NCBI GenBank assembly: GCA_045601325.1
Contig: JAZRZI010000008.1
Coordinates: 2,961 to 66,960, forward strand
Length of the DNA: 64,000 nucleotides
Source of the DNA: Bacilli bacterium
GTDB lineage: Bacteria > Bacillota_I > Bacilli_A > RFN20 > CAG-826
Direction: 5' to 3'
The stretch's first letter is position 1; each line of letters begins with the position of its first letter. The translations under genes were made by a program, and so were the position numbers. Shown here in pieces: positions 12,088 through 64,000 of the stretch. The notes under the pieces are model-generated. The model had not been told where the DNA came from. It saw nothing but the letters and a program-made list of their open reading frames with translations, and searched no databases.

Positions 12088-12933
12088 CTAGATTGCTTCC
12101 GCCGCAGCAGCAATTTCAATAATTTCTTGAGTAATCGCACCTTGGCGGGCTTTATTGAACTCGATTTTAAGTGCATCGAGAATTTCATTCGCGTTATTAG
12201 TTGCGTTATCCATCGCATTGCAACGACTTGCTTGTTCACAAACTTCAGATTCTAGTAACTTAGAATAGATAGTTGTTTTTAAATATATTGGAACTAACTC
12301 AGAAACAAGCTTTTCTTCACTTGGTTCTAAGATAGGTGGATAAGTAATTTGTTCTTTCTTTTCAGACTTAGAAATAGGAAGAACGACATAGTCTTTAGGA
12401 ATAAAGGCTATTGAGTTTTTATATGAAGAATAAATCATATGCACTGTTCTATAAGTACCTTTGACATATTCATTAATTACAAATTCAGTTAAGGATTTAA
12501 TTGTGTAATTATCTTCAATAGATGAATAGGAAGAAAATTCTTCCACCTTTCCAAATTCACCATTCGAGAAATGGATTAAACCTTTGCCACCTAATATGAT
12601 TGCATCATCTTCAGGTTTAATAGATGCATCCGCTAATTTGAAGATATTGTTGTTATAAGCACCGCATAATCCTAATGTGGAACTAACAACTATATACAGG
12701 TCTTTCTTTGAGGTTTTATTGGTTTGTGAAAAAGGAGTTTCAACTATAGAAGTGTAATTTAAAATCTCATCGGTGATTTCATCGATGTATGAAGAATATT
12801 CACGATTAGCGAGCATTTTATTTCTCCAGCGTTTAAGTTTAACTGTGGAAACAAGTTTCATCGCGCTTGTAACCTTTAACGCTCCGCTAACAGATTTGAT
12901 ACGAGATTTAATTTTAGTAACTTCTTGAGACAT
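12088..12933 (-). CDS. atpG: ATP synthase gamma subunit
   Basis: Operon position, and the conserved C-terminal ITxEIxEI motif. Confidence 0.9.
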   Translation of the reverse strand: MSQEVTKIKSRIKSVSGALKVTSAMKLVSTVKLKRWRNKMLANREYSSYIDEITDEILNYTSIVETPFSQTNKTSKKDLYIVVSSTLGLCGAYNNNIFKLADASIKPEDDAIILGGKGLIHFSNGEFGKVEEFSSYSSIEDNYTIKSLTEFVINEYVKGTYRTVHMIYSSYKNSIAFIPKDYVVLPISKSEKKEQITYPPILEPSEEKLVSELVPIYLKTTIYSKLLESEVCEQASRCNAMDNATNNANEILDALKIEFNKARQGAITQEIIEIAAAAEAI

Positions 12934-12943
12934 TACTTATACC

Positions 12944-14461
<1,518 letters not shown>

Positions 14462-36147: not shown

Positions 36148-37185
36148 CTATTTCACCATTTCATGTAATTTGTCTAAATTATCAAATATATCCTTAGCTA
36201 ATGTTAATTGAGTTCTGCATCTAACTAAGTTATGTTCATCAAATTTTGTGTGGAAATAAACATCTCCATCAAGATAGTCTGTTAAGAATCTAATACCACA
36301 TTCATATGTTAATAAGAATGCACTATAAGGTAGCAATTCTAACTCTCTTGGGGATAAGACAGTTCTCATTTCGCTTAAATATGCATTTGCGTAATTTTTA
36401 TATAACTCGTAATTAACTTTAAGTTTGGAAAGATCTCTACTATCTTCATTAGTGCCTGTGAACAAGCTTCTAAGAGCGTCGCCAAAGTCAAATAAATAAC
36501 TACCAGGCATAATAGTATCCAAATCGATAATACATCTAGCATCGTCTGTTTTAGCGTCAAATAATGCATTATTAATTTTAGGGTCATTATGGGTAATGCT
36601 TAGTGGAATGCTTCCATCTTGTAAACCAGACATAATCTTATCTATTTCTTTTTCATAAGATAACGCTAATTCAATTTCAGGCATACAAGTTGATTTACGT
36701 CCTTTAACATCCTTTGCAATACTTGCTAATAAATCTCTAAATCTTTTTGGAGTATTGTGAAAATTAGGAATTACTTCGTAAAGTTTGCTTGCATCAAAAT
36801 CTCTTAAGCATTTATGGAATTTACCATATGCGACCGCATCTTTGATTAATGTTTCTGTGTCGGTAACTTCCTCCAAAGTAACAGAGTTTTCTACAAAGTC
36901 ATATAAACGGAAGTATTTGTCACCTTCTTGATGATATAACTCATCTTTTAAAGTGCGAATAATCTTCAAAGATTCAATACCCTTCTTTTCCAAGTTAGAA
37001 GTGACATATTCAATGTTTGCCATTAATTCATCGACATTTTTAAATGCGACTGTATTAATTTGTTGAAGAATATATCTTCTTTTTGAAGTAACAACTAAAT
37101 ATGTTCTATTGATGTGACCATTTCCATATGGTTCGCAAGATAAAACATCACCTTCGATTTTAAATTGTTTGATAATATTTGCCAT
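36148..37185 (-). CDS. APH-family small-molecule kinase (N-acetylhexosamine kinase NahK- or MtnK-like)
   Basis: Nucleotide loop EPYGNGHINRTYLV, Brenner motif HNDPKINN and a DLD metal-binding motif. Confidence 0.6.
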   Translation of the reverse strand: MANIIKQFKIEGDVLSCEPYGNGHINRTYLVVTSKRRYILQQINTVAFKNVDELMANIEYVTSNLEKKGIESLKIIRTLKDELYHQEGDKYFRLYDFVENSVTLEEVTDTETLIKDAVAYGKFHKCLRDFDASKLYEVIPNFHNTPKRFRDLLASIAKDVKGRKSTCMPEIELALSYEKEIDKIMSGLQDGSIPLSITHNDPKINNALFDAKTDDARCIIDLDTIMPGSYLFDFGDALRSLFTGTNEDSRDLSKLKVNYELYKNYANAYLSEMRTVLSPRELELLPYSAFLLTYECGIRFLTDYLDGDVYFHTKFDEHNLVRCRTQLTLAKDIFDNLDKLHEMVK

Positions 37186-37256
37186 ATAATTCGTATTATT
37201 CAGTTAAGCCTAGTTTGATGACTGAATAACTTTCTCCTTTCTAGGCTATAATCCCC

Positions 37257-37937
37257 TTAACTATGTAAGTTTTCAAATAAAATTAAATCTTCCTTCGTCG
37301 TAATTTTGAAATTCAATTTGGAGCCATTAACTAAATACACAGGAATATTCAGTTTGCTTACTAATTGAGCGTCGTCGCTTGCGTCGCTATCCTTAAACAT
37401 TTCATGAGCTTTTTTAATTACTCCTAATTTAAACGTTTGAGGTGTTTGAGCTTGATAAAGTTCTTTTCTACTGCAAGTATCCGTCAAAGTATTTGCATTT
37501 GCGCTTTTAATAATTGTATCGGTTACAGGTATGACAGTTTCTACTGCGTCAAAAGTTTTACCAGCGATGATATTTTCATTGATAATCTCTTGAGATACAT
37601 TCGCTCTTGCAGCGTCATGAATTAATACCACATCATTATAATTAACCCCTAATGCTTCTAATGCACATAATCCATTATAAGATGATGCTTGTCTTGTATC
37701 TCCACCTACGAGAACGGCGTTAACCTTAGATAATCCAAATTCTTTCGCCCATTCTTTGACTTTTACTATGTAATCTCTCAAAGTCACCACAACAATCATG
37801 TCAATATTTTGGTTATTTTGAAAAGCCTCTAAAGTATAAATAAGAAGAGGTTTGTTATTTACTAATATGAATTGTTTGGGCGTGGATTCTTTCATTCTTG
37901 TTCCACTGCCAGAAGCTAAGACTAACGCGATATTCAT
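37257..37937 (-). CDS. IspD/TarI-family cytidylyltransferase
   Basis: ALVLASGSGTRM...PKQF signature. The upstream in-frame extension to 38039 is probably not translated. Confidence 0.7.
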   Translation of the reverse strand: MNIALVLASGSGTRMKESTPKQFILVNNKPLLIYTLEAFQNNQNIDMIVVVTLRDYIVKVKEWAKEFGLSKVNAVLVGGDTRQASSYNGLCALEALGVNYNDVVLIHDAARANVSQEIINENIIAGKTFDAVETVIPVTDTIIKSANANTLTDTCSRKELYQAQTPQTFKLGVIKKAHEMFKDSDASDDAQLVSKLNIPVYLVNGSKLNFKITTKEDLILFENLHS

Positions 37938-37945
37938 ACTTTTAA

Positions 37946-38749
37946 TTATTTGATATCCCTTTTTATAAAAGTGATCGTTCCAAGAATCGCAAACACAATT
38001 GCCCATCCTAAAGGACAAACAATAGAAGCGAGGAACCACGTTTGATTCATACCTCTACACATAGTAGATATAACTCCAAAACTAAATATAGGGTTTAGCC
38101 AACCTTGAATGCCGATAACAAACTCTTCTTCTTGTTTGCCGATATTTTCAAGTGTTGGAATAATTGCGAGAAATAATAGAAACACGATTGGGACAATAAC
38201 TAATGGCATCGAACCACCGATGTTTCTTGTAAGAGTGGCCATAAATATGGTGAAAGTAACAATAAAAACATATGTTGCTAGTGCCATAAGTGGGTATTGA
38301 TATAGTAGACTAGGTACAAATTGTCCTAATGTTGTGGAACCATTCTTGTCAAAACCACCAATAATTGAAGCGACACCAACTGATAAACCAAAATAAATTG
38401 TCATCAAAGAGATGGTGAAAATTAAGCCTATCAATAATAAAGAAAAGTAGATAGAACTCTTTTTGTGACCCGCAATAATCTTATTTCTAATCGTGCCACA
38501 ATTAAATTCACCAATAGTAAATACAATTAAATTAATAGGAACAGTTAATCCAAAGTTTTGAGTTGGAGACAAGCTGGAAATAAACATGTTTTGTCCATTA
38601 CATACGGCGCCGACATTGTCTCCAAGCAAATCAATGCCAAAATACACTAAGTTCATAAACACTGCTAAAGCAACGCCGATGATTAATGTGATTCTAAAAG
38701 TCCAGTCTTTAAATAACTTATAGAGAGCAGATTTAATGATATTAGCCAT
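37946..38749 (-). CDS. ABC-2 type transporter permease
   Basis: Six-TM profile. It overlaps the upstream ATPase gene. Confidence 0.6.
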   Translation of the reverse strand: MANIIKSALYKLFKDWTFRITLIIGVALAVFMNLVYFGIDLLGDNVGAVCNGQNMFISSLSPTQNFGLTVPINLIVFTIGEFNCGTIRNKIIAGHKKSSIYFSLLLIGLIFTISLMTIYFGLSVGVASIIGGFDKNGSTTLGQFVPSLLYQYPLMALATYVFIVTFTIFMATLTRNIGGSMPLVIVPIVFLLFLAIIPTLENIGKQEEEFVIGIQGWLNPIFSFGVISTMCRGMNQTWFLASIVCPLGWAIVFAILGTITFIKRDIK

Positions 38750-39653
38750 TATTACTACCTCCTATAAGATTAAGATAATAATCTTCAACATTTCCTTCAC
38801 GGGTGCGAATGTCTAAAACATCGAGACCGACTTTATGAAGTCTTTCTAGTAATTCTAAAGGAGTGACATCGTCAAAAACTCGAATATATGTCACATAGTT
38901 CTTATAATCTTTAAAACCTGCCTTTGCTAAAGCTACTTCAACTTCAGATAAATCTTGATGTTTAATGTCGATTGCTTTAATACAATCTTTTACTAAATCA
39001 TCAGCAGATATTTCTTTTAATAATTTACCTTTTTGGATGAAACCATAATGAGTTGCAACCTTTTCAAGTTCAGAAAGGATGTGAGAAGAAATTAAGAAAG
39101 TAATCCCTTGTTGATTTAAAGAGGTTATAAGATTTCTTAATTCCGCAATACCAGCAGGATCTAAACCATTCATAGGTTCATCAAGAAGCATAAGTTTAGG
39201 TTTATTTAAAAGCAAAACCGCGATACCTAAACGTTGTCTCATACCTAAAGAAAAGTTTTTAACTTTCTTTTTGCCAGTATCTGCTAGCTCAACATCTTTT
39301 AATACCTTATCAATAATTGAGAAATCCTTAACACCATAATACATACAAGCGAATTTTAGATTTTCTTTAGCGGTCATTGTAGGCACCAAAGAAGGAGCTT
39401 CAATAATGGCGGAAATGTTATTTCTAACTTTATATATTTTTGAATCTTTTGCATTAACATTAAACAAAGCATAAGTTCCATCATTAGGAATTGCTAAACC
39501 CATAAGCAAACGCATAATGGTTGTTTTACCACTACCATTTTCTCCAACAAATCCATATACAGAACCGAGTGGGACATGCATATTTACTTTGTTAACAGCT
39601 ACATTGGTACTATATTTTTTAGTAAGGTTATTTGTTACAATTGCGTATTCCAT
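38742..39653 (-). CDS. ABC transporter ATP-binding protein
   Basis: Walker A GENGSGKTT, signature FSLGMRQRL and Walker B LMLLDEP. The ATG at 39653 has an AGGAGG RBS; the track's extension to 39731 is AT-rich spacer. Confidence 0.85.
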   Translation of the reverse strand: MEYAIVTNNLTKKYSTNVAVNKVNMHVPLGSVYGFVGENGSGKTTIMRLLMGLAIPNDGTYALFNVNAKDSKIYKVRNNISAIIEAPSLVPTMTAKENLKFACMYYGVKDFSIIDKVLKDVELADTGKKKVKNFSLGMRQRLGIAVLLLNKPKLMLLDEPMNGLDPAGIAELRNLITSLNQQGITFLISSHILSELEKVATHYGFIQKGKLLKEISADDLVKDCIKAIDIKHQDLSEVEVALAKAGFKDYKNYVTYIRVFDDVTPLELLERLHKVGLDVLDIRTREGNVEDYYLNLIGGSNNG

Positions 39654-39758
39654 AAATATCCTCCTTTTAATAATTATAATAATTATTATTTTAAAAATAA
39701 AGGTGCGAGAGATTAAAAAAAGTTCCAACACGCAAGTATTGAAACTTATTTTTTAAAG

Positions 39759-39850
39759 TGGCGGAGTAAGAGAGACTCGAACTCTCGCACCAGTTAACCC
39801 GATCTACGTCCTTAGCAGGGACGCCCCTTCACCAACTTGGGTATTACTCC
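39759..39850 (-). tRNA. tRNA-Ser (anticodon GCU), long variable arm
   Basis: The reverse complement folds as GGAGTAA.../...TTACTCC+G+CCA with anticodon loop CTGCTAA, 92 nt. A TATAAT lies ~11 nt upstream on the minus strand. Confidence 0.8.
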
Positions 39851-39900: not shown

Positions 39901-41337
39901 TTAATATGCCTTAGCAAATAAAACAACTTTTGTAGCTTTTTTGCCACATACTGGACAGGTGACATCAAAAGAAATTTGATTGAATGGAATGCATCTAGCA
40001 GTAGCGTTAGTCAATTCCTTAATCTTATCTTCACATTCTTGATCGCCACACCACATCATCTTAGCGTAGCCACCTTTTTCTAATGCAGCATTTAATTCTT
40101 CTAAGTTATGAATTTCTGTGACGTGATCTAATAAATATCTATATGCCTTTTCATACATTGCTTTGTGAATTTGTGGGATTAATTCATTAATCTTATCCAC
40201 CATTTCTTCTTTTTTAACAGTAATTTTTTCACCATTGTAACGTGTAGCAATAGTGACGTTTCCTGCTTCGATATCTCTAGGGCCAATTTCAATTCTTAAT
40301 GGAACGCCTTTCATTTCATATTCAGCAAACTTCCAACCAGGAGATTTATCAGATTCATCTAATTTAACTCTTAAGCCAGCATCTTTAATCATCTTAGCTA
40401 ATTCTCTAGCAGCAGGAATAACACCTGGTTTTTGTGCCGCTACAGGAATAACAACAGCTTGGATAGGTGCGACATATGGAGGTAAGGATAAACCATTATC
40501 GTCGCCGTGAACCATAATGATAGCGCCGAGTAATCTAGTAGAAACACCCCAAGATGTTTGATGTGGATGTGCTAATTTTCCATCTCTTCCTTGGAAGGTG
40601 ACACCAAAGGCTTCCGAGAAGCCAGTACCAAAATAGTGAGTTGTGCCAGATTGTAAACCTTTTCCGTCAGGCATTAAAGCTTCAATAGAATAAGTTTCCA
40701 TTGCCCCAGCAAATTTTTCTTTTTCAGTTTTTCTACCTTTAACGAAAGGAATAGCAAGTAAATCTCTGCCACAATCGTCATAGATTTCTAACATTCTTAA
40801 AGCTTCTGTTCTAGCTTCTTCTTCAGTTTCGTGCATTGTGTGGCCTTCTTGCCATAAGAATTCAGCACCTCTTAAGAATGGACGAGTTGTCTTTTCCCAT
40901 CTCACCACAGAACACCATTGGTTATAAAGTTTTGGTAAATCTCTATATGAAGAAATGATTTTTGCGTAATGTTCGGTGAATAATGTTTCACTCGTTGGAC
41001 GGATAATAAGTGGGTCTTCAATAGGAGCGCCACCACCAATATTTGCCACTAAGCATTCAGGTGCAAAGCCTTCAACGTGGTCCTTTTCTTTTTGAAGCAA
41101 AGATTCAGGAATAACAGTTGGCATGTAAACATTTTCATGACCAGTTTCTTTAAATTTCTTGTTCAAATATTCTTGAATTTGTTCCCAAATGGCATAACCA
41201 TAAGGTCTATAAATGATAAAGCCTTTAACAGAACTATAATCCATTAATTCAGCTTTTTTACAGACGTCAGTATACCATTGTGCAAAGTCATCTTCTTGAC
41301 GTGTAATGGAATCATTTTTAATTTGATTATTTCCCAT
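39901..41337 (-). CDS. proS: Prolyl-tRNA synthetase (archaeal/eukaryote-like form with a C-terminal zinc-binding domain)
   Basis: Class II aaRS motifs, no INS editing domain, and a C-terminal CPVCGKK zinc motif. 478 aa. Confidence 0.9.
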   Translation of the reverse strand: MGNNQIKNDSITRQEDDFAQWYTDVCKKAELMDYSSVKGFIIYRPYGYAIWEQIQEYLNKKFKETGHENVYMPTVIPESLLQKEKDHVEGFAPECLVANIGGGAPIEDPLIIRPTSETLFTEHYAKIISSYRDLPKLYNQWCSVVRWEKTTRPFLRGAEFLWQEGHTMHETEEEARTEALRMLEIYDDCGRDLLAIPFVKGRKTEKEKFAGAMETYSIEALMPDGKGLQSGTTHYFGTGFSEAFGVTFQGRDGKLAHPHQTSWGVSTRLLGAIIMVHGDDNGLSLPPYVAPIQAVVIPVAAQKPGVIPAARELAKMIKDAGLRVKLDESDKSPGWKFAEYEMKGVPLRIEIGPRDIEAGNVTIATRYNGEKITVKKEEMVDKINELIPQIHKAMYEKAYRYLLDHVTEIHNLEELNAALEKGGYAKMMWCGDQECEDKIKELTNATARCIPFNQISFDVTCPVCGKKATKVVLFAKAY

Positions 41338-41339
41338 AT

Positions 41340-43088
41340 TTATACTCTCCTTGACGCGACAATCGCGATATCGTTTAATTCTTTCATTCTCTTTTCGCTA
41401 ATAGGCATAACCATTTCGCTGCTAGGTCCATTAGTATCACTAGACACTAAGTTAATACCAGATTGGATAATGATATCCACGAAATGTCTAGTCGGTATGT
41501 CGGTAACAATAATCGGTTTATTGTATCTTTGTAAGCTAGCAATAATGCTGTAATAAGAATGGGTAATAGAATTCATTCTTTCTTTAGTCTTAATATTTAC
41601 TGCTTTGACCACAAAGTAATCAAACTCATTATTTATTTTACTGTCCAATAATAATGTTTTGTCGCTTATAGAAAGCGCCAAACCATAACCAAGATTATGC
41701 AACTCTTTTAATTTATTTACAACCAAATCTATCTCAGAAGCGTTATCGCAAACTTCCTGTTCATCAAATAAGAGGATTAAATCAATCTTATTGACAGTTT
41801 GAATTTGTGATAATACATTAGCGATATGGTCGGTAGCAAACATACTTGCTTCCACAAACAAAGATGCTCCATTTGTTCTATCGCTAGCACTGAATACAGG
41901 GACAATTTGACGTTCAATATAGTCCAGTAATTCTCTGCTTCTTCCATATTTAGAAGAGTATTTCATAATTTCATTGAAGTTATTAAAAATAACTTTTGAA
42001 CCATTAACATATGAGAAATATCCTAAAATACGTTTATTAAAGCAATCAACGATAGGTCTATATGTAATAGAAAGGTGTCCACCTTCTAAAATAGCATCGA
42101 TATTTTGAATGTAATTTTCACTTTGAAGTACGACTCTAGATGATTTATCAAATAGGAAGTAATCGCAATCAGTCAATTGTTGAGCATGAATGCTAACTTG
42201 TTCTGCTTTTTCTAATAAACTATTAAAATCATGGTAATATTGAGCGTTTTGGACAATGCCAACACCAAAGTGAATAGAGCTACCATTGGAATCTTTTCTA
42301 AGTTCTTTCTTAATAGCATCCACTATCGAAATAGCTAATTGAACAGCTTCATCACTGGATGCAATTTGCATATCAAATAAAACGAGTTCATTAGTGTTAA
42401 CCTCAAGAATCTTTCTATTTGCTCTTTTATGAGTGGCGAAAGAACAAATTGTGTATTTTAAACGAGTGTATAAATATTGTTCGGCAACATCGGTGACTGT
42501 AACTCTATTTCCTAAATAGGAAAAACGAATTGCAAATGTATATCCTTTTATGGACTTCATGGTGTCAAATTCGGATGAAATATCACTTCTTGAAACAATA
42601 CCCATATCGGATTTATTAGTTTTCTTTTTAGTTTCATAGTTTGAAATAGATGCTATGTGTTCACTTTGAAGAATAATCTTTCCGGTAAGCTTATCGTAGT
42701 TAACTACTTTTAATAAAGTACGCGTAGAATTCTTTCTGTTGTCATTTAAAACGTCAATTTCAAGGAAAGGAGAAACTTCGTTATTAGAAATCTTATCAAC
42801 CCATTCCTTAAGTTTTGTAACTTGAGATTCCACTGCTAAAGCGTAGAAGGAAGTTAAAGACATAGTTTGTTTGTTAGCTAGATCAGACAAGCTAAAAGTA
42901 GTAACTGAATTTTCTCGTTTATCAATGATGAAAATAGAATAACTTCTATTCTTAACAGAAACACTTTTGTTTTTTCTTCTTTCTAAACCACTACCAACAC
43001 CAAAAGATACAATCATTCCGAGTATGAAAAGAACCACCAATAAGGTAACAATAGCTAGGGTAAGAAATACAGGGTTAGTAAAATCCAT
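41340..43088 (-). CDS. Membrane-anchored protein with degenerate GGDEF-like and EAL-like domains (both catalytic signatures lost)
   Basis: N-terminal TM. The EAL-domain core YRPIVDC...ILGYFSYV is recognisable with EAL replaced by FSY and DDFG replaced by SISD. The GGDEF tail SIHFGVGIV is present, but the signature position reads NELVLF. Confidence 0.5.
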   Translation of the reverse strand: MDFTNPVFLTLAIVTLLVVLFILGMIVSFGVGSGLERRKNKSVSVKNRSYSIFIIDKRENSVTTFSLSDLANKQTMSLTSFYALAVESQVTKLKEWVDKISNNEVSPFLEIDVLNDNRKNSTRTLLKVVNYDKLTGKIILQSEHIASISNYETKKKTNKSDMGIVSRSDISSEFDTMKSIKGYTFAIRFSYLGNRVTVTDVAEQYLYTRLKYTICSFATHKRANRKILEVNTNELVLFDMQIASSDEAVQLAISIVDAIKKELRKDSNGSSIHFGVGIVQNAQYYHDFNSLLEKAEQVSIHAQQLTDCDYFLFDKSSRVVLQSENYIQNIDAILEGGHLSITYRPIVDCFNKRILGYFSYVNGSKVIFNNFNEIMKYSSKYGRSRELLDYIERQIVPVFSASDRTNGASLFVEASMFATDHIANVLSQIQTVNKIDLILLFDEQEVCDNASEIDLVVNKLKELHNLGYGLALSISDKTLLLDSKINNEFDYFVVKAVNIKTKERMNSITHSYYSIIASLQRYNKPIIVTDIPTRHFVDIIIQSGINLVSSDTNGPSSEMVMPISEKRMKELNDIAIVASRRV

Positions 43089-43149
43089 ACCTCGATATTA
43101 TAAATTATTCAAATAAATTTGACTATAAAAAGTCTAATTTACAATTTAA

Positions 43150-43194: not shown

Positions 43195-43287
43195 GGAGAA
43201 GTACCCAAGTGGTTGAAGGGGGCAGTTTCGAAAACTGCTAGGGGGCAATTGAGTCTCGCATGGGTCCGAATCCCATCCTCTCCGCCA
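43195..43287 (+). tRNA. tRNA-Ser (anticodon CGA), long variable arm
   Basis: GGAGAAG...anticodon stem GCAGT/ACTGC with loop TTCGAAA, a long variable arm, T-arm ATGGG/CCCAT, encoded CCA. Confidence 0.8.
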
Positions 43288-43299
43288 ATTTTTTATTGT

Positions 43300-43592
43300 T
43301 ATATTTTAAAAAAATATGATAATCTAATTTAGTAAAGCTACGAAGGAAACAAGTACACTATTCCTCTGCTAGATAGAGATGACTCGGTTGGTGAAAGAGT
43401 TATAGCAAGAATTTGTGGAATACATTCTGGAGCTGCTTCCTGAAATTAAGTAGGGATAGACGGGTTAGCCCGATATAGCTAGATGTGCACTGCACACACT
43501 AAGGAATAACTCGTGAGGGTTATTTAAAATGAGGTGGTAACACGATACATTCGTCCTCTGTAAAGAGGACTTTTTATATTTTTAGGAGGGAA
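43300..43592 (+). promoter_or_regulatory. T-box riboswitch leader (Tyr specifier) controlling tyrS
   Basis: A UAC specifier candidate in AAGUACAC; the conserved T-box sequence aaTGAGGTGGtAACACG; a terminator cgtcctct-gtaa-agaggac followed by TTTTT, just upstream of the RBS aggaggg. Confidence 0.7.
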
Positions 43593-43596
43593 AAAT

Positions 43597-44814
43597 ATGG
43601 GCATTTATGAAGATCTTCAAGAAAGAGGTTTAATCGCTCAAGTTACCGATGAGAACGAAATTAAGGAATTAGTTAATAACGGAAAAGCTGTTTTCTATAT
43701 TGGCTTTGATCCAACCGCTGATAGTTTGCATGTTGGTCACTTTATGACATTAGTGTTGATGAAGAGATTACAAATGGCAGGCAATAGACCAATTGCTTTA
43801 TTAGGCGGTGGAACTGGTATGGTTGGTGACCCATCAGGTAGAACAGATATGAGAAAAATGTTAACTATTGAAGACATTGATCACAACTGTGACTGTTTTA
43901 AAAAGCAAATGGAAAAATTCATAGAATTCGGTCCAGGCAAAGCCATGATTATTAACAATGCTGAATGGTTAAGAAACCTTAACTATATTGATTTATTAAG
44001 AGACGTAGGTGCACATTTCTCAGTTAACAAAATGTTAACTGCTGAATGCTATAAGCAAAGAATGGAAAGAGGCTTATCCTTCTTAGAATTCAACTATATG
44101 ATTATGCAAAGCTATGACTTCTATTATTTGCATGAACATTATGGATGCAATATGGAATTCGGTGGCGATGACCAATGGAGTAATATGCTTGGTGGCACCG
44201 AATTAATTAGAAAGAAAACCGGCAAAGATGCATATGCATTAACAATTACTCTTTTATTAAATAGCGAAGGAAAGAAAATGGGCAAAACCGCTTCAGGTGC
44301 AGTTTGGTTAGATCCAAATAAAACATCTCCATTTGAATTCTTCCAATACTGGAGAAATGTTGATGACGGCGATGTGATTAAATGTATGAAACTTTTGACA
44401 TTTATTCCTATCCAAGAAATCAAGGAAATGGAAAGCTGGCCAGATAATAGAATTAACGAAAAGAAAGAGATTCTCGCATTTGAATTGACAAAGTTAGTTC
44501 ACGGTGAAGAAGAAGCTGCAAAAGCTAAAGTAGCAGCAAGAGCATTATTCTCTGGAGAAGGTGATGATAGCAATATGCCAACAACCGAACTCGAAAATGT
44601 TCCCGAAGAAGGAATTCAATTATTGAATATCATGGTCACTGCTGAATTAACTACATCTAGAGGTGAAGGAAGAAGACTCATTGAACAAGGTGGAGTTTCT
44701 GTTAATGGAGAAAAAATAAATAATCCAAATATCACAATTTCTAAAGCTCAATTAATGGAAGGAATTAAGATTAAAAAAGGTAAAAAAGTCTTCCACAAAG
44801 TTATTGCAAAATAG
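43597..44814 (+). CDS. tyrS: Tyrosyl-tRNA synthetase
   Basis: HIGH motif (HVGH), KMSKS (KMGKT), and a C-terminal S4-like domain. Confidence 0.9.
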   Translation: MGIYEDLQERGLIAQVTDENEIKELVNNGKAVFYIGFDPTADSLHVGHFMTLVLMKRLQMAGNRPIALLGGGTGMVGDPSGRTDMRKMLTIEDIDHNCDCFKKQMEKFIEFGPGKAMIINNAEWLRNLNYIDLLRDVGAHFSVNKMLTAECYKQRMERGLSFLEFNYMIMQSYDFYYLHEHYGCNMEFGGDDQWSNMLGGTELIRKKTGKDAYALTITLLLNSEGKKMGKTASGAVWLDPNKTSPFEFFQYWRNVDDGDVIKCMKLLTFIPIQEIKEMESWPDNRINEKKEILAFELTKLVHGEEEAAKAKVAARALFSGEGDDSNMPTTELENVPEEGIQLLNIMVTAELTTSRGEGRRLIEQGGVSVNGEKINNPNITISKAQLMEGIKIKKGKKVFHKVIAK

Positions 44815-44870: not shown

Positions 44871-45923
44871 TTAATTAATTGGTTTGATAAAGAAACTACC
44901 ATACACCTGCACCAAAGATGTGACAGAAATGAATGAGTGACTATCAACTTTCCTTGCTAATTCAACAACTTTCTTAACTTCATTAGAAGAAACAATCATC
45001 CAAAAGACGAATTGTTCTCTACCAGAATAAACACCATTACCATGCGCCATTGTAGCACCGTGAGGGAAATTGGAAATCAAGATTTCGCCCATATCTGAAT
45101 GTGTTGTAATGATTTCAACTCTAAGTTTTTTATTTCTTAAGTTAATAAGGTCGACGACAACATTAACAATGATTAAATAAACTAATGAAAATAACATTGG
45201 ACCAACAGCAGCGCCCCAGTTACCACCATTATCAACAGCTAGAAGAATAGAATAAATAGCGATAATAACAGCATTAACGGCGACACCAAATTTGCCAACA
45301 GAAGTAGACTTTTTATTAGAAATATAGTAGGTTATAATATCAATTCCGCCACATGAGAATTCTGCCTTATATGTGATTGCACTAGATAGGCCTATTATTA
45401 CGCCACCAAATAAGCCGCGTAAAAAAGGCATTGAACCAATAGCAGTTGAAAGATCAACTACCTCATTCACAGTACGTGAACCTGTTGCGAGTAAATTGTA
45501 CATAAAGCCATTTTCGCCACCAAGCATTTGAGGCACTAAAACTAAGAACAACGAAGAAGCTCCAACATTGATAGCTGTTTGGATTGAAAAACGTTTGCCA
45601 ATTTTAAAGAAAGCAAAAACTAATAAAGGTAAATTAAAACAAACATAACCAATAGCGGTAAGTACGTTATCAGGAATTGTTCCACCAAAAATATGAACAA
45701 CCAAAGCAAGAACTTGAGATAAACCAGATACACCACCAGTTGCAAACTTCATCGTAGAGAATGGTTCATTAGGCAAAACGAAAAGAGTAAAGCCAACAGC
45801 AAATATAATTGCTCCTAATACTGCAATAAAAAATCCTTTAACTTCATAAAGAATTTTTTTGAGAATATAATGATCATAGAAGAAGTTATTTATTTTTCTT
45901 TTGTAACGTTGAATTTTTCTCAT
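44871..45923 (-). CDS. YitT-family (DUF161/DUF2179) integral membrane protein
   Basis: Polytopic N-terminus and a C-terminal DUF2179-like soluble domain. The start is uncertain (ATG at 45923, or TTG at 45965). Confidence 0.5.
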   Translation of the reverse strand: MRKIQRYKRKINNFFYDHYILKKILYEVKGFFIAVLGAIIFAVGFTLFVLPNEPFSTMKFATGGVSGLSQVLALVVHIFGGTIPDNVLTAIGYVCFNLPLLVFAFFKIGKRFSIQTAINVGASSLFLVLVPQMLGGENGFMYNLLATGSRTVNEVVDLSTAIGSMPFLRGLFGGVIIGLSSAITYKAEFSCGGIDIITYYISNKKSTSVGKFGVAVNAVIIAIYSILLAVDNGGNWGAAVGPMLFSLVYLIIVNVVVDLINLRNKKLRVEIITTHSDMGEILISNFPHGATMAHGNGVYSGREQFVFWMIVSSNEVKKVVELARKVDSHSFISVTSLVQVYGSFFIKPIN

Positions 45924-46123
45924 ATTGACAAGCAATATTGTAGTAGGAGTCAAGTCAAAAAACAATATATATTATATTTATAATATTTTTTGGTAAAATA
46001 TAGACGTTATGGCATATTGGCTATTTGCCTAATACATGTTTGTTATACAAATATGTTATTGCATTAAAAAATGCTTAGTGTTAATATATTTAGCGCTATA
46101 TGTATATATAGGAGGTTACTACT

Positions 46124-46942
46124 ATGGTCGTATTAAAAGCAATCGGAAGATTCTTCGCCAAGATTGGTCGTTGGATCAGAGACACAGCATGGGTTCAACC
46201 ATTATTAATTGTTGGCGGTATCTTTGCAATTATCTTCTCTATCCCACCAATTACAAAAGCTATCAAAAACGCTAATAAAGAAAGCGATGCTGCATTAGCA
46301 TATTACAAGAAAAATGCATTAAGCTGGAAAGGCGTCGAAAAAGATGGCGTTAGCTGTGATGTTGAAAAATTATTTGCTTATCTTGAAAACCCTGATGATC
46401 CAAATAATAAAACATACGCTAATAAATTTGGTCGTAAATTCTTTGTGAACTTTGTCCAAGAAGGCTGCACAGGCTGCAAATCAAACTACTATGGTTTCAA
46501 AACAGCACAAGACAACTGGGGCAAATCTGAATTTGCATTCGAGGGCGAAAAAGAAGCATTCAAATCTTACAGCATCTTTATTGATGCAGAAGATGATGAC
46601 GATGAAATTTGCTTCACAAAATACATTTCTGGTAACAAAGCAAGTGCTGAATACAATGACATCTTCCAAGATGCAAGTGATATTCAAACTCCATATAAGG
46701 ACAACGTAGGCGGTGGAGATTCATATTATGAATCATTATTCTCAGAAGAAAATACATTCCAATCTCCAACATGCTTCTTAGTTGACTTAGATGGTCCTGG
46801 TTATACATCTACATTCGGTATCTCTGAAATCTTCTTCGAATTCAGCGGAAAAAATGGAGATAGCACAGCATGGGGCAAAGCAAGAACAGTTTGGGATTGT
46901 TGGAACCACCAAGGTATCTTCTCAGTTGATTACAAAAAATAA
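46124..46942 (+). CDS. Membrane-anchored extracytoplasmic thioredoxin-like CxxC protein
   Basis: N-terminal TM, followed by FFVNFVQEGCTGCK (a thioredoxin-fold CxxC context). Confidence 0.45.
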   Translation: MVVLKAIGRFFAKIGRWIRDTAWVQPLLIVGGIFAIIFSIPPITKAIKNANKESDAALAYYKKNALSWKGVEKDGVSCDVEKLFAYLENPDDPNNKTYANKFGRKFFVNFVQEGCTGCKSNYYGFKTAQDNWGKSEFAFEGEKEAFKSYSIFIDAEDDDDEICFTKYISGNKASAEYNDIFQDASDIQTPYKDNVGGGDSYYESLFSEENTFQSPTCFLVDLDGPGYTSTFGISEIFFEFSGKNGDSTAWGKARTVWDCWNHQGIFSVDYKK

Positions 46943-58535: not shown

Positions 58536-59300
58536 TTATTTCTCTTCCTTCTCCCTTCTTGCTTTAAGATATGCACTTAGTTTCTTGTCAATCCATCTTG
58601 CAATTTTGAAGAGACAAGTAATGTAAACAATAAGACAAGCACCTAATACGAACCAGTTATAAACCTTATCAAAAGTAAATGGTAAGAATAAATCCTTTGG
58701 AATTAAAGACACTCCAAATACCACTGTGGCAATTCCAACAGCTTTACCAATTGCTCCATAAAGCATATGCAACCACCACTTCATTTTCATAGATCCTACA
58801 CATAGACAAATAAAGTCATCTGGGAATAGTGGAAGTAAATACATTATTGGAACATAAACCATACCTTTTTCATTGATTAGTTCTTTGGTCTTTTCGTATT
58901 CTTCCTTGCCAAATATCTTGATGATGAGTTTAGAGCCACCAAATCGACCTAAAGCATCAATGAAAATGTAAGAGAGAATACAACCACCAAATGTTGCTAA
59001 AAAGCACTTCCAATTTGCTCCAAATAATGCAATTCCTAGCCATACAAAGACACCACTACCAACCGGGTTCATACAAAGAAGTGTCGCTCCAATTGCTTCT
59101 GCTAGAACATAAACTATGTAAAGCATTGGGTTGTCTTTGAGTTCTTCAAACATAGCATTGTTAAAAACAAAGCCATTATCAAATTGAATTACACCAGTAA
59201 GATAGAAAATTAAGAAGAAAATACTACTTATTGCGATACCAATTGCTAAGACAATTAAGAGTTGAAGTAATTGCTTTTTATGATTCTTAAGCCATTTCAT
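58536..59300 (-). CDS. TVP38/TMEM64 (DedA-superfamily) membrane protein
   Basis: Polytopic. The LLPLFPDDFICLCVGSMKM segment matches the DedA/TVP38 re-entrant loop motif. Its start codon overlaps the stop of the giant upstream ORF by 1 nt. Confidence 0.55.
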   Translation of the reverse strand: MKWLKNHKKQLLQLLIVLAIGIAISSIFFLIFYLTGVIQFDNGFVFNNAMFEELKDNPMLYIVYVLAEAIGATLLCMNPVGSGVFVWLGIALFGANWKCFLATFGGCILSYIFIDALGRFGGSKLIIKIFGKEEYEKTKELINEKGMVYVPIMYLLPLFPDDFICLCVGSMKMKWWLHMLYGAIGKAVGIATVVFGVSLIPKDLFLPFTFDKVYNWFVLGACLIVYITCLFKIARWIDKKLSAYLKARREKEEK

Positions 59301-62300
59301 TAGTCTTTCACTCCAACATATGTTAAGGCATCTTTGTGACTTGCTCCCTTACTCATCAAGAAAGAGATAAGTGTTTTTTGAGAGTTCCCGGTTACTGAAT
59401 ACCCAGCAAGATACATAAGTAAAACTTTCTCTTGTTTAGACATTTGAAGTTTATTTATGTAATCAATAACTAATTCTTTTCTACTCTTCTTCTTTGTTTC
59501 AGTAATAGAACCAGTCTTTTGTAAGATTGAAATATATTTAGCAAGTTCGACATTGCCATTGGTTAAAACAAGTAAGTTTTCAAGTTTTGATGAACCACTA
59601 CTACCAATTGCTCTTGCTTTAGCAAAACCATAATAGGCATTATAAACGCTTGAAATGAGTTTGGCTTTTTCTTCGCTTGTAGCAACTCTATACTCTGGTG
59701 TATTCATCACTTTAACAACTTGATTTTCACTTTGTTGATATAGTTTCTTAAATTGAGTAATTTGAGCCGCAGTGAGTTGAATTTGATTACCATTATCATC
59801 AGTGTAGGCAGTAGGAATACTTCTTGGAATAGCATTATAACCTTGAGATGAAAGTATAACTAATTCAGCATTGATTTGGTCATTAGTTACTCCACCTTTG
59901 AACTCACTGACCATATAGGAAAGATATGCTTGTGCGGACTTTGTGTCTCCACTTTCAATATATTGGTTATAGGATTTGGTTAAACCATTAACAGTAGAAG
60001 CATAGAAAATATTATTGAATTTCAAAGCTGCTTCCGAATCAATGAGTTTGGTAATTCCATAGATATACTTTTTGATTTCATCAATTGGAAGCCCTGTAAG
60101 ACCTTCAAGAATAGAAATTAAACCAGTTAATAATGCACCACTAACTTTACCTTCTACAATAGAAGAATAAATATTATGTGCCACTTGTCCTAAGTCGTTG
60201 AGCATAGAAATGCTTGGAGCATCAATCTCATAACCATTCAAGACAGTGCCAGTGAGAGTTCCAACAACAGGAATCCAATTTAAGAATGAGTTAGTAGCAA
60301 CTGTTGTAAGTATTTCTTCTGCTTTGTATTCGCTAAATTTCTTCTTACCATAGAGGAAGTTAGCGAGCATACCAACAGCGGTGACAGCAATACCATTGAT
60401 AATCATCTTAGCAAGGATATTAAGAGGTATTCTCTTACCACCACTAAACTTATATTGTTTATAACCATCACTCTTGTTTTGTTGAGTTTTGGCTTCACCA
60501 TTGGCTTTATATTCTTCTTCACGAGCATTATTAAGATTTTCTTTAAGTGTCTTATTAGTTGCTCTTTGTTCATTGACTTTTGCTCTTGCTTCAGCAATTA
60601 AACCGTTGATATCTTCTTCAACTGAAGTATCAGCAAATTGACCTTCATCTCCATTGATCCAAGCAACTTTATTGAGTTCAATTTCTTTTGAATAAATTTT
60701 CGAGCCTTGTCCACCAGCATATTCTTCGGCTTGTATTTTACTTGTTGAAACAAATGTTCCTTGTTCAATCTCTTTTGAAGAATAAATAGTTATTTTTCCA
60801 CTTTCAAGTGCTTTTTGTGCGTCTTCTCTTGAGAAATCTCCCCAAGCAAATTGACCTTCTTTTTCATCATTCAAAGCAAGGACTTCTTCCCAAGTTTTAA
60901 TATCTTCAACCTTACGGATACCTACATGATATGAGTCTTCCATTGGGTTATATTTATTAACAATACCAAGTTGTTGTTCTTTCTTATTATTAAGCAAATT
61001 ATCTCTTTCTTCTCTTAAAGTGTCGAGTTGTTTGAGACCATTGTTGTATGCTTCTTCAGCTTTAGAAGTAACCTTTTGTGCTTCTTCATACTTAGCAAGT
61101 GCATTTTCTAAATCTGCTTTTAATTGAGCCTCATCAACATTGTGGAATTGATGATATAAAGAACCTTGAACAGCATATGAAGCAACATTCGCTCTCATAG
61201 CACCAGCAAGGACATTGAAAGTCATTCTTGTAATTGCATTATCATTGAGCAAGTTTTGATGAAGTGGAGTAGAACCAACATTAAGCATATTGTATAAAGA
61301 ATACATATCTCTAACATATTGCTTACCTTCAACACTATTAACGTCAACACCATTCTTCAAACAATCATTGACTATGTCTAAAAGACCACTATCCATAGCG
61401 AGTTTATCCCAAAACTTAACCGGAGACATAACTATGGATTGTATCTTTCCACTAATACCACTAAATGTTGTAGGAGCATTACCTTTTAAGAGTTCTTGTG
61501 AAGCACTACGATATTTGAGTTCAGGTATTACTTCATCAATAAGCATATGAGCTGCTTCTCTAACTTCTTTACCATATTTGCTTAATTTAACCATTTTGGC
61601 TAAATCAATATTGGAAGTTGTATGTGATAAGTAGTTCTTAACACTTCTAATAGGAGAAGAAATCTTACTTGTAGCATAACCACTCATAAATAGAGCAGTT
61701 GTTTTTGTGATGAAGTTTTGACTTTCTGGGTTTTTAATAATCCATTGATCAGTGATATCGGTAAGATATTTGAGTTCATTTCTTCCATACTTTTCACTAA
61801 TGTGTTGAGCAACTGAAATACCATTACTGTCTTTACTATTAAGTAAGGCATAAAAATCATGAACCGCTGGTTTAAGATAAATTTGTTGACCAATTCTTTT
61901 AATATAGTCACCAATCTCGTCCATGATATCAACGACACCTAAAGCACTTAAGTCTTCAGTTCTCTTTAATCCATATCTAAAGGAAGGGTCACCAATAACC
62001 CTTTTATCAATAGAGGTTTGGAAATAAGAATCTTTATGTAATGTGGAATAGTCTTTAACTAAGTCAACATCAACATATCCACTTTCTTTTTTGAAATCAA
62101 CAAACTTACTTTGTAAGTATTCATTGATAACTTTATAGTGCAAGTTTTCAGCAAGTTTAATGGTTTCTGGTGTCATTAAGGCATCAATATCAGCTTTTAA
62201 TTGTTCCAAGTGACCTTCGCCTTGATAGAACCATACTGGTCTACCTTGTTTGTCTTCGGTGTGATAACCACCATAGTTAATATTTTCAGCATTAACTGGA

Positions 62301-64000
62301 GCAAGATGAGTTTCGATATAGGCTTTAATAAGTTCACCTTTTGTAATCTTAACACCGTTAATCTTCCCGGCATTATCTTTACTATGCCAACCTTTTGGTA
62401 AGAAATCACTTACAAACTCATTGCTCTTAACAACCCATTCAGTATTGTTTCCATGTGCTTGTAAAATTCTAATTTGACCTTTAGTGATTTCACCATAGCC
62501 ATATTTAACAAAGAGTTCTCCACCCTTTCCACCAAGTGTCTTAGTAATTGGGTCTAAAACCATTTGAAGTTTAGACATATCATAAGAAGCAATTTCATTA
62601 GAAGTTGCGATTGCTCTACTTCTTCTTTCTGGAATTACTCTTCTTACCATTTTTTGTTCATAGGCAAGTAAATCTTTGTTGTATTGCTTTAATGCTTTAT
62701 AAGTTTCTAAAGATAACTCTGGTTTACCTAAGTCGCCTCTTAAGAGAACCTCTAATTCTTCAAGGTCTCTCTTGATAGTGTCATCATAGTTCATGATGCT
62801 CTTTTCATAGTTTTCTTCGGTGTAAATCTTATTAGCAGTAGAGATTGCTTCGATAGTTTTATCGGTTGCTTTATAAGTTCCACCATGTCTTTCTAAAGAA
62901 GCAAGTAGTTTTGAGAGCATATTGATAGTATGGACATCTCTATCTTCTAACTTGTCATAGGTATAGTCGCCTTCCGCTAAATCTTTAATCTTAGAGCGGT
63001 TTCTAGATAAGAAGTTGGTGTAATCCTTTTTAGCCTTAACTTCTTTGATTTGAGACTTAAGGTCATTGTTAATTGACTTAAAGATTTCATATGCTTTAGC
63101 AAGTCTTTCATTAGCCTTTTCTCTAATCTTAGCAATTTGTTCATTCTTCTTTTCAAGAGATAAATCAAATCTCTTTTCGAGTTTAGCAATTCTAGAAAGT
63201 TCACTCTTTGCTTTAAGCAAACCAGTGATAGCCTTAACAAAGTCATCTTTATGTCCTGCTAAGAACTCTTGTCTAACACTTCTATCTGGGTTAAATGAAA
63301 CAATCTTAGAGTTAGCAATATCATCTGCTAATTCACTAATAGCATTTGCAATTTCACTTTCTTTAAGAGTATTAAAATCTTCAAATAGTCTCTTTGCGGT
63401 TTCACCTTTAAGGAGTTTAATTTGATATTCATATCCTTCCTTTTTAGGGAAGATTTTATCCATAATTTGTTTCTTGACAATATCAACAATGTCCTCTGCC
63501 TTTTTCATAGATAAAACTCTCTCATGGTTTAGATCACCATAAGCCTTGATATATCTTGGCTCACTCTCTTTTGGAAGAGACATCATTATTTCATCATTTG
63601 CCTTTGCCATTGCGACAGAAGTCTTGGCAATTTCACTAACATTTATTGATTTTGTTGGTAAAACCTCAATATTTTCAATGTTTTTGAATTTAGAATCGAC
63701 ATATGTAATAGCACTATGCCACTCACCATCTTCACCATTAACAGCTTTAGAGATAATCATGTATCTATCTCCATCTTTGATTATAGATGAACCTTTGTGC
63801 TCTCTAATAAGTTCAAAATATTCTTTTATTTGTTCAGTAGAATAATCTTGTTGAATTGCTTTTGCAACGTCTCTATTAACAGTTAATCCACTTGCATTAT
63901 TTGGCACTTCGATGCCTTTAGAAACAAACGAACTAATTGGAATAATTGCACCTTGAACAGTGCCATCACTATTGTCAACTGTTCCTAAATAAATAATAGA
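59300..64000 (-). CDS. Giant protein, at least 1,566 codons and 5'-truncated by the window edge. It is coiled-coil rich with a Gly-rich hydrophobic block, resembling a phage tape-measure or ICE/polyvalent-type protein
   Basis: The reading frame stays open from 59300 to the window end; the track's start at 63907 is an internal GTG. There are two long coiled-coil stretches, a ~120-aa Gly-rich hydrophobic region (approximately nt 60083-60439) and no nucleotide-binding or catalytic motif. Confidence 0.4.
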   Translation of the reverse strand, partial: SIIYLGTVDNSDGTVQGAIIPISSFVSKGIEVPNNASGLTVNRDVAKAIQQDYSTEQIKEYFELIREHKGSSIIKDGDRYMIISKAVNGEDGEWHSAITYVDSKFKNIENIEVLPTKSINVSEIAKTSVAMAKANDEIMMSLPKESEPRYIKAYGDLNHERVLSMKKAEDIVDIVKKQIMDKIFPKKEGYEYQIKLLKGETAKRLFEDFNTLKESEIANAISELADDIANSKIVSFNPDRSVRQEFLAGHKDDFVKAITGLLKAKSELSRIAKLEKRFDLSLEKKNEQIAKIREKANERLAKAYEIFKSINNDLKSQIKEVKAKKDYTNFLSRNRSKIKDLAEGDYTYDKLEDRDVHTINMLSKLLASLERHGGTYKATDKTIEAISTANKIYTEENYEKSIMNYDDTIKRDLEELEVLLRGDLGKPELSLETYKALKQYNKDLLAYEQKMVRRVIPERRSRAIATSNEIASYDMSKLQMVLDPITKTLGGKGGELFVKYGYGEITKGQIRILQAHGNNTEWVVKSNEFVSDFLPKGWHSKDNAGKINGVKITKGELIKAYIETHLAPVNAENINYGGYHTEDKQGRPVWFYQGEGHLEQLKADIDALMTPETIKLAENLHYKVINEYLQSKFVDFKKESGYVDVDLVKDYSTLHKDSYFQTSIDKRVIGDPSFRYGLKRTEDLSALGVVDIMDEIGDYIKRIGQQIYLKPAVHDFYALLNSKDSNGISVAQHISEKYGRNELKYLTDITDQWIIKNPESQNFITKTTALFMSGYATSKISSPIRSVKNYLSHTTSNIDLAKMVKLSKYGKEVREAAHMLIDEVIPELKYRSASQELLKGNAPTTFSGISGKIQSIVMSPVKFWDKLAMDSGLLDIVNDCLKNGVDVNSVEGKQYVRDMYSLYNMLNVGSTPLHQNLLNDNAITRMTFNVLAGAMRANVASYAVQGSLYHQFHNVDEAQLKADLENALAKYEEAQKVTSKAEEAYNNGLKQLDTLREERDNLLNNKKEQQLGIVNKYNPMEDSYHVGIRKVEDIKTWEEVLALNDEKEGQFAWGDFSREDAQKALESGKITIYSSKEIEQGTFVSTSKIQAEEYAGGQGSKIYSKEIELNKVAWINGDEGQFADTSVEEDINGLIAEARAKVNEQRATNKTLKENLNNAREEEYKANGEAKTQQNKSDGYKQYKFSGGKRIPLNILAKMIINGIAVTAVGMLANFLYGKKKFSEYKAEEILTTVATNSFLNWIPVVGTLTGTVLNGYEIDAPSISMLNDLGQVAHNIYSSIVEGKVSGALLTGLISILEGLTGLPIDEIKKYIYGITKLIDSEAALKFNNIFYASTVNGLTKSYNQYIESGDTKSAQAYLSYMVSEFKGGVTNDQINAELVILSSQGYNAIPRSIPTAYTDDNGNQIQLTAAQITQFKKLYQQSENQVVKVMNTPEYRVATSEEKAKLISSVYNAYYGFAKARAIGSSGSSKLENLLVLTNGNVELAKYISILQKTGSITETKKKSRKELVIDYINKLQMSKQEKVLLMYLAGYSVTGNSQKTLISFLMSKGASHKDALTYVGVKD

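Follow-up and report, generated by a model that had tools for sequence, protein, structure and literature searches.

Why should a protein built on the two domains of cyclic di-GMP (c-di-GMP) turnover, with the catalytic equipment of neither, stand directly in front of the gene for an essential aminoacyl-tRNA synthetase? The question is raised by a stretch of 64,000 nucleotides (nt) from a Bacilli bacterium (assembly GCA_045601325.1, contig JAZRZI010000008.1, positions 2,961 to 66,960), referred to here as the window, in which a protein of 582 amino acids (aa), named X here, is encoded upstream of proS, the gene for prolyl-tRNA synthetase (ProRS). Our results indicate that X belongs to an undescribed, large, lineage-specific group of doubly dead GGDEF-EAL proteins. 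With somewhat better than even confidence, we regard X as an inert PAS-dGGDEF-dEAL fossil (d, degenerate) that serves as a membrane-tethered adaptor or scaffold and is the first gene of an operon in which proS relies on the X promoter.

The relationship to GGDEF and EAL proteins is faint in X alone and becomes clear from its family. By itself, X matches the Pfam EAL model (PF00563) with E=3.5e-4 and 20.5 bits, under the gathering score of 31.3, has no GGDEF match in Pfam, and in NCBIfam weakly matches Tlr1612 and DibA where their GGDEF and EAL domains join. A word-indexed search with X returned six homologues of 33-61% identity; the EAL model matches X and all of them (7/7 sequences, best 1.7e-7), and some relatives pass the gathering score, P0040 for example with 36.2 bits. 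From an exhaustive search with HMMER through 1.84 billion cluster representatives came the 131 representatives that, together with X, make up alignment A3 (132 members, identity to X down to 16%). The A3 profile matches in the PDB the GGDEF-EAL protein PA0575 (5m3c, 8e-8), FimX (4j40, 9.3e-7), the EAL domain of Lmo0131 (2.4e-4) and DosP (4e-4), and reaches bona fide PF00990/PF00563 proteins in a collection of 5.8 billion sequences, to E=5.9e-10. The shallow profiles A1 (7 sequences) and A2 (68 close sequences) gave no PDB matches. Alignment of the EAL-region sub-alignment to four real EAL domains by hhalign gave a probability of 96.6% over 220 columns, and the AlphaFold2 (AF2) model of X, with a predicted local distance difference test score (pLDDT) of 90.4, found structural relatives in Foldseek at 1e-17; an earlier model from 7 sequences (pLDDT 63.6) was not used. 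By fold and by profile homology, X belongs to the GGDEF (PF00990) and EAL (PF00563) superfamilies. An earlier reading made from the letters alone (the sequence-only reading) had recognised GGDEF-like and EAL-like domains in X and proposed a profile search as a check; family profile and AF2/Foldseek bear the two domains out, hhalign the EAL domain, and the matches to 5m3c and to PF00990/PF00563 proteins show that the similarity is not due to chance.

Degeneracy was assessed by aligning the family profile to real cyclases and phosphodiesterases and counting residues in A3 (n=132); the residues of X at each position are listed in the table below. With GGDEF motif, metal-binding Asp and guanine-binding residues all missing, X cannot make c-di-GMP. 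Nor can it hydrolyse c-di-GMP, because seven of the eight canonical EAL catalytic positions are replaced, the sole survivor being E443, the second Glu of ExxE. In the same profile alignment, FimX has E-V-L-L-R opposite F-S-Y-V-N of X. The sequence-only reading had called both domains catalytically degenerate, which the alignment confirms. Its motif assignments were correct for the EAL signature GYFSYV (EAL corresponding to F358-S359-Y360) and for SISD in place of DDFGTG (S473-D476), while NELVLF, given for the GGDEF position, lies in the right hairpin but two residues out of register with NTNEL at 231-235. The motif losses also support its view that X probably takes no part in classical c-di-GMP turnover.

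Degenerate proteins of this kind can still act as receptors. Binding of c-di-GMP by degenerate EAL receptors is determined by ExLxR, which is kept by FimX, LapD and Erwinia CsrD (PMC10333796). CsrD of E. coli carries ExMxR and does not bind c-di-GMP, so that even a Leu-to-Met change in the motif abolishes binding, and YdiV and STM1697 neither catalyse nor bind c-di-GMP (PMC10333796). Given this rule, the absence of ExLxR suggests that X is not a canonical c-di-GMP receptor. As far as motifs can tell, X has the features of none of four classes: active cyclase, active phosphodiesterase, I-site receptor of the PelD/PopA type and ExLxR receptor of the LapD/FimX type. The counts across A3 indicate that degeneracy is a property of the whole family and not recent decay in this genome. 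What the family conserves instead is F-x-E443-x-[D/E]445, FDYF at 489-492, FRPI at 343-346, G356-Y357, S549 and a basic tail.

The HMMER search puts the family at 454 clusters at 50% identity with E<=1e-3, of which 300 lie at or below 1e-10 and 161 at or below 1e-30. Its members are nearly all of ~570-600 aa and align end to end. A degenerate-pattern scan, taking one genome per species, gave 67 close loci, all in uncultured metagenome-assembled genomes (MAGs) that carry the labels Bacilli, Bacillales or Erysipelotrichaceae and for the most part come from rumen and gut. Word-indexed searches with A3 and P0150 gave few members, named only 'hypothetical protein', and found none that is cultured or characterised. 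No Pfam or NCBIfam model and no name for the family was found in library and homologue searches, and a literature search found nothing on GGDEF/EAL proteins with prolyl-tRNA synthetase or in Erysipelotrichaceae.

X also had been described as anchored by an N-terminal transmembrane (TM) helix, and a single hydrophobic segment is indeed found there, as exactly one is in 126 of the 132 family members. The segment is preceded by MDFTNP and followed by ERRKNK, and forms a helix over residues 6-46 of the AF2 model. Because of the positive-inside rule, the predicted topology is N-out/C-in, with the remainder of the protein in the cytoplasm. A signal peptide or secreted N-terminus was considered and rejected, given the lack of a basic n-region, the 27-residue hydrophobic stretch, the basic residues after it and the cytoplasmic-type domains downstream. 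The model provisionally refines the earlier architecture to TM-PAS-dGGDEF-dEAL, with a PAS-like domain between the anchor and the GGDEF fold, and the full-length Foldseek alignment to the PAS-GGDEF-EAL structure 5xgb covers 567 columns. The PAS fold of residues ~50-149 is a provisional assignment from the model: X and its close homologues have no Pfam match in this region, a profile of the N-domain only has no meaningful PDB match, and Pfam and PDB profile searches gave the domain no sequence-level relatives outside the X family. At the other end of the protein, the basic C-terminal helix has the top mean column conservation of the X segments (0.495), with K566 and position 570 basic in 93-95%; its last codons double as the ribosome-binding site of proS.

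The junction with proS is as tight as the sequence-only reading had stated. The stop codon of X (TAA, 41342-41340) and the ATG of proS (41337-41335) are separated by 2 nt, in the sequence ...TCA AGG AGA GTA TAA at ATG GGA, and a promoter/terminator scan predicted no terminator and no strong promoter there. The product of proS matches TIGR00408 with 1.1e-171 and the Pfam models tRNA-synt_2b, HGTP_anticodon and ProRS-C_1; it is an ordinary full-length family-I enzyme without extra domain. Among the close loci, the gap from X stop to proS ATG ranges from -17 to +24 nt, and 63 of 66 have a Shine-Dalgarno-like motif no more than 20 nt from the proS ATG. All 66 close loci with enough room have proS directly downstream of X, and five of six distant lineages have it immediately 3', likewise within 24 nt (P0187, P0171, P0080, P0060 and P0002); beyond the close set, a downstream proS is found at loci L068-71, L073, L074 and L075. 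Shared strand, tight gap and conserved adjacency together indicate that X and proS form an operon, and the 2-nt gap, the embedded Shine-Dalgarno sequence and the adjacency lend support to the co-transcription that had been proposed. In the sixth distant lineage, P0162 (locus L072), X is present and the downstream proS is missing, which suggests that X does something in its own right and need not be linked to proS.

Two serine tRNA genes bracket the pair. The downstream gene, tRNA-Ser(GCU), may belong to the transcription unit as its third gene, and follows proS on the same strand by ~55 nt in about 35 of 60 related loci. The upstream gene, tRNA-Ser(CGA), is divergent and lies 82-133 nt from X in 62 of 68 loci, including the distant L068, L070 and L074 as well as L072. 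The conserved module therefore reads tRNA-Ser(CGA) <-> X - proS - tRNA-Ser(GCU), and the pairing of X with tRNA-Ser(CGA) appears to be conserved more deeply than that with proS, because it is kept in L072, where proS is absent. As to the genes beyond, a YitT_membrane + DUF2179 gene is the next protein-coding gene upstream of X in L068 and L070/L071; in the window it lies beyond an inserted T-box-tyrS unit, found at that place between the YitT gene and X in just 9 of 67 related loci. RNase J is encoded ~7 kb from X in the window, L068 and L070, a sign of wider housekeeping synteny.

The predicted promoter of the operon scores higher (10/12) than any other promoter-like site of the region, and its -10 box ends 8 nt before the X ATG (43088). 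TATAAT is found without mismatch in the ~100 nt that separate tRNA-Ser(CGA) from X; 42 of 55 loci have its end 7-8 nt upstream of the ATG, and 51 of 55 have it 6-10 nt upstream. No Shine-Dalgarno sequence was found before X, whereas proS has a strong one. Because of this spacing and of the missing Shine-Dalgarno sequence, the mRNA of X is predicted to be leaderless. Over the -35 box, a perfect inverted repeat with arms of 6-9 nt is present in 47 of 57 loci; its arms vary by subclade with complementarity kept (TTTGACT/AGTCAAA, TGAATTTG/CAAATTCA, TTATGAAT/ATTCATAA and TTTTTAC/GTAAAAA). The palindrome looks like an operator, and is a candidate site for a dimeric regulator of the X-proS operon. 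A proline T-box before X was considered and rejected: the sole T-box of the window serves tyrS, and none lies before X in 10 related loci. Since T-boxes are typical for aminoacyl-tRNA synthetase genes of Firmicutes, the lack of one at proS is unusual.

X and its neighbour evolve at very different rates. Median pairwise identity among related genomes is 52% for X and 79% for ProRS. The copy in the window is more divergent again, being 31-37% identical to other copies, while genome pairs with ProRS at 82-90% show X at ~60% (minimum 47%), and of 66 positions well conserved in the family, it departs from the consensus at 21. Its only close relative, L075 (61% identity), has the same promoter palindrome and proS junction. 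Between these two, nonsynonymous divergence (dN) is 0.31 for X and 0.028 for the N-terminus of proS, so that X evolves about 11 times faster than ProRS. Synonymous sites of X are saturated (proportion of synonymous differences, pS, 0.77), for which reason the ratio to synonymous divergence (dS) is given only as dN << dS and not as a number. As dN lies far below the saturated dS, X of the window is still under purifying selection, though a relaxed or shifted one; accelerated evolution or xenologous replacement may have caused its divergence.

The sequence-only reading had also noted that the window holds no active cyclase or phosphodiesterase. Home-made GGDEF and EAL models, which do not cover HD-GYP, found no other GGDEF or EAL open reading frame (ORF) in the 64 kb; one weak EAL match proved spurious, being ATP synthase gamma. 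A lineage devoid of c-di-GMP does not follow from this. Locus L038, on a 191-kb contig of a related rumen MAG, carries an intact REC-PAS-GGDEF gene with GGDEF and DxD/GD motifs (12567-13730, + strand), ~5 kb downstream of X-proS, and the mollicute Acholeplasma laidlawii has 14 GGDEF/EAL proteins (PMC2408644). Because of these two cases, the absence of a cyclase from 64 kb says little.

Positions of features in the window and of motifs in X (residue numbering of the 582-aa protein).
Feature	Position	Strand	Remarks
X coding sequence including stop	41340..43088	-	582 aa; TM-PAS-like-dGGDEF-dEAL
N-terminal TM anchor (predicted)	42990..43070	-	residues ~7-33; only Kyte-Doolittle window >1.6; RRKNK after
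PAS-like alpha/beta sensor-type domain (provisional)	42642..42941	-	residues ~50-149; secondary structure bbb-aa-bbb in AF2 model
Degenerate GGDEF-fold domain	42144..42596	-	residues ~165-315
Degenerate EAL-fold domain	41409..42116	-	residues ~325-560
Conserved basic C-terminal helix	41346..41396	-	residues ~565-581; helix 565-581 in AF2 model
proS	39901..41337	-	478 aa; second operon gene; family I (archaeal/eukaryote-like) prolyl-tRNA synthetase
proS Shine-Dalgarno AAGGAGA	41346..41352	-	inside last X codons, 8 nt before proS ATG; read from sequence
tRNA-Ser(GCU)	39759..39850	-	50 nt downstream of proS; ARAGORN and Rfam
Terminator-like hairpin	39747-39720	-	after tRNA-Ser(GCU); terminator scan
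Predicted sigma-70-type promoter of X-proS operon	43097..43125	-	TAGTCA (43125-43120), 17 nt, TATAAT (43102-43097)
Imperfect palindrome TTAGACT-TTTTAT-AGTCAAA	43118..43137	-	overlaps -35; one mismatch; candidate operator
tRNA-Ser(CGA)	43195..43287	+	divergent, 106 nt upstream of X; ARAGORN
T-box leader	43331-43561	+	118.8 bits; serves divergent tyrS
tyrS	43597-44814	+	
YitT_membrane + DUF2179 gene	44871-45965	-	
ATP synthase gamma	12091-12936		spurious weak EAL match
Phosphotransferase and cytidylyltransferase genes	36148-38039	-	
ABC transporter pair	37946-39731		
272-aa ORF	46124-46942	+	
1535-aa ORF	59300-63907	-	GTG start
GGDEF motif	N231-T232-N233-E234-L235		NTNEL; GGDEF-like motif in 0/132
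Metal-binding Asp, GGDEF domain	R188		
I-site RxxD, five residues before GGDEF position	R225 (Asp)		R in 68/132; Arg position gapped in most members
Q of QP, EAL domain	R344		
ExLxR	F358-S359-Y360-V-N362		E at position 1 in 4/132; E.L.R or E.[LM].R within +/-8 residues in 0/132
Asn, EAL domain	S415		
ExxE, EAL domain	L440/E443		
DD of DDFG	S473-I474		S473-I474-S475-D476, SISD
Lys, EAL domain	V494		
Glu of EGVE	D530		
QG, EAL domain	S549-S550		

Elsewhere in the window, an APH/choline-kinase-like phosphotransferase gene stands beside one for an IspD/TarI-like cytidylyltransferase, downstream of an ATP-binding cassette (ABC) transporter pair, a module that looks like choline or alditol phosphate activation for decoration of the cell surface. 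The 1535-aa ORF has only a borderline TRAP_beta match in Pfam and may encode a surface- or adhesin-like protein. The 272-aa ORF, without Pfam match, lies beside a Cu-oxidase_4 (YfiH/PgeF-like) gene.

To our knowledge, characterised degenerate GGDEF-EAL proteins come almost all from Proteobacteria, and most have a c-di-GMP docking motif. Of the precedents named in the sequence-only reading, CsrD fits X better, and the receptors LapD and FimX fit poorly, ExLxR and RxxD both having been lost. CsrD of E. coli resembles X in having an N-terminal membrane anchor, a sensor-type linker domain, a degenerate GGDEF and then a degenerate EAL domain, and in showing neither catalysis nor ExLxR-dependent binding of c-di-GMP, since it acts through macromolecular contacts (PMC10333796). 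The differences are considerable. CsrD is a proteobacterial protein with two TM helices, a GAPES4 periplasmic domain and HAMP, and retains E-x-M-x-R, whereas X has one TM helix, ~6 external residues and a PAS-like domain, and has lost the motif entirely; CsrD binds the small RNAs CsrB and CsrC, and for X no Csr system or small RNA target is known. The resemblance is thus one of function and architecture, with no family relationship beyond the shared superfamily. YdiV and STM1697 come from gamma-proteobacteria, consist of EAL alone, are cytoplasmic and bind FlhD, whereas X of Bacilli is a four-part membrane protein. X belongs to neither the CsrD nor the YdiV family, although by analogy it would work most like them, and CsrD is the best analogue for how it probably works.

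LapD and FimX share with X the dual degenerate GGDEF-EAL module, and are among its top structural neighbours (LapD, Foldseek 7e-16; FimX, profile 9e-7); LapD is also membrane-bound, as X is. Both keep ExLxR and bind c-di-GMP through it, however, and in LapD two TM helices flank a periplasmic LapG-binding domain, with HAMP present as well, where X has one hydrophobic segment with ~6 residues before it and a PAS-like domain after it. RbdA (PA0861) and DosP are active PAS-GGDEF-EAL phosphodiesterases with intact EAL, and the GGDEF domain of RbdA binds GTP; X has lost these residues.

We propose that X is what remains of a signalling enzyme of the PAS-GGDEF-EAL type: catalytically inert, and tethered on the cytoplasmic side of the membrane by its single N-terminal helix. 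Because catalysis is impossible and both docking motifs, ExLxR and RxxD, are lost, X is most likely an adaptor or scaffold, which would act through contacts with other macromolecules, as CsrD and YdiV/STM1697 do. Transcription from the sigma-70-type promoter, with its palindromic candidate operator, would start a leaderless transcript at or next to the AUG of X; proS would be translated from the strong Shine-Dalgarno sequence inside the last X codons, with tRNA-Ser(GCU) and the terminator following. The near-universal linkage of X and proS would then reflect an expression lock-in, with proS dependent on the X promoter, and not necessarily a biochemical partnership. Several points weigh against this proposal. 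The scaffold role is argued by elimination, and the leaderless start is deduced from spacing. The TATAAT of four loci is only 1 nt from the assigned ATG of X, and some start codons may be wrong. The adjacency of X and proS survives where the neighbours tyrS and YitT have moved, which a functional tie could also explain. In addition, c-di-GMP appears to be available in the lineage, since L038 has its intact cyclase gene next to the locus. Finally, a polar cluster is kept where the EAL active site would sit (E443 79% acidic, position 445 92% acidic, D490 81%, D/N530 and S549), and the EAL barrel may hold a remodelled ligand or metal site.

The last two of these points bear on what X might bind. 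X could be a c-di-GMP receptor like LapD and FimX after all; the nucleotide would sit outside the canonical site, either elsewhere in the remodelled EAL barrel or between domains, and X would relay the signal from the membrane. Its closest structural neighbours include those receptors, the lineage can make c-di-GMP, and acidic or polar residues are conserved at barrel-top positions; set against this, ExLxR and RxxD are gone, X retains none of the Q, N, DD, K and E contacts, and in CsrD a Leu-to-Met change in ExLxR is already enough to abolish binding (PMC10333796), so we hold the receptor to be unlikely. The same conserved acidic and hydroxyl residues (F-x-E-x-[DE]/D490/[DN]530/S549), together with the purifying selection on X, could instead point to a new ligand or a new catalysis in the EAL-like barrel or the GGDEF-like domain, for which there is a precedent in GdpP, whose degenerate GGDEF domain gained ATPase activity (PMC10333796). 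An enzyme usually conserves its active site above all else; these residues, however, are conserved at only 65-92% with none invariant, F81 and P345 alone reaching at least 90%, while X of the window has replaced several family-conserved residues. A re-tooled enzyme or sensor of this kind appears distinctly unlikely.

The conserved adjacency, for its part, could mean that X works together with ProRS or with the translation genes nearby, either as a membrane tether or regulator of ProRS or as a CsrD-like adaptor that presents RNA (tRNA-Ser or the operon transcript) to a ribonuclease. The pair holds together down to ~16-20% identity of X while flanking genes change, the two tRNA-Ser genes bracket it in most loci, RNase J is not far away, and CsrD shows that a membrane-bound dGGDEF-dEAL protein can act on RNA. 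Yet L072 has X and tRNA-Ser(CGA) without proS, and X evolves ~11 times faster than ProRS, unlike one half of a tightly co-adapted pair; both observations argue against an obligate partnership. ProRS, moreover, is an ordinary family-I enzyme with no added domain, and a proS without promoter of its own would explain the adjacency equally well. We consider such a partnership improbable, about as much so as the receptor. Much the least probable is that X is a gene in decay, or a stretch that is translated but matters only for the promoter and ribosome-binding site it provides for proS. Its fast evolution (in the window, 31-37% identity where 60% is expected), the loss of all catalytic motifs and a leaderless start that may mean low translation would fit; an intact ORF of ~580 aa with the same four-part architecture in more than 130 divergent representatives, a confident AF2 model, dN far below saturated dS and the persistence of X without proS in L072 do not.

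The X family is a clear natural example of a 'dead' dual-enzyme scaffold retained over the long term, with fold, length and architecture under purifying selection, and it is a candidate Pfam or NCBIfam family from uncultured low-GC gut and rumen Bacilli. Its slot is remarkably fixed: X is the first gene, predicted to be leaderless, of the proS operon, with two bracketing tRNA-Ser genes and a palindromic candidate operator. The X-proS pair offers a testable case of an essential synthetase gene without a T-box that would be controlled through the promoter of the gene upstream. A bolder possibility, which we rate as rather unlikely, is that X is a lineage-specific membrane adaptor tied to translation, presenting RNA to RNase J or RNase Y, recruiting or regulating ProRS, or sensing a ligand other than c-di-GMP with a re-tooled EAL barrel. 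Were it true, X would be the first case in which a GGDEF-EAL fossil has become part of the biology of aminoacyl-tRNA synthetases or tRNAs, here in Bacilli of reduced genome.

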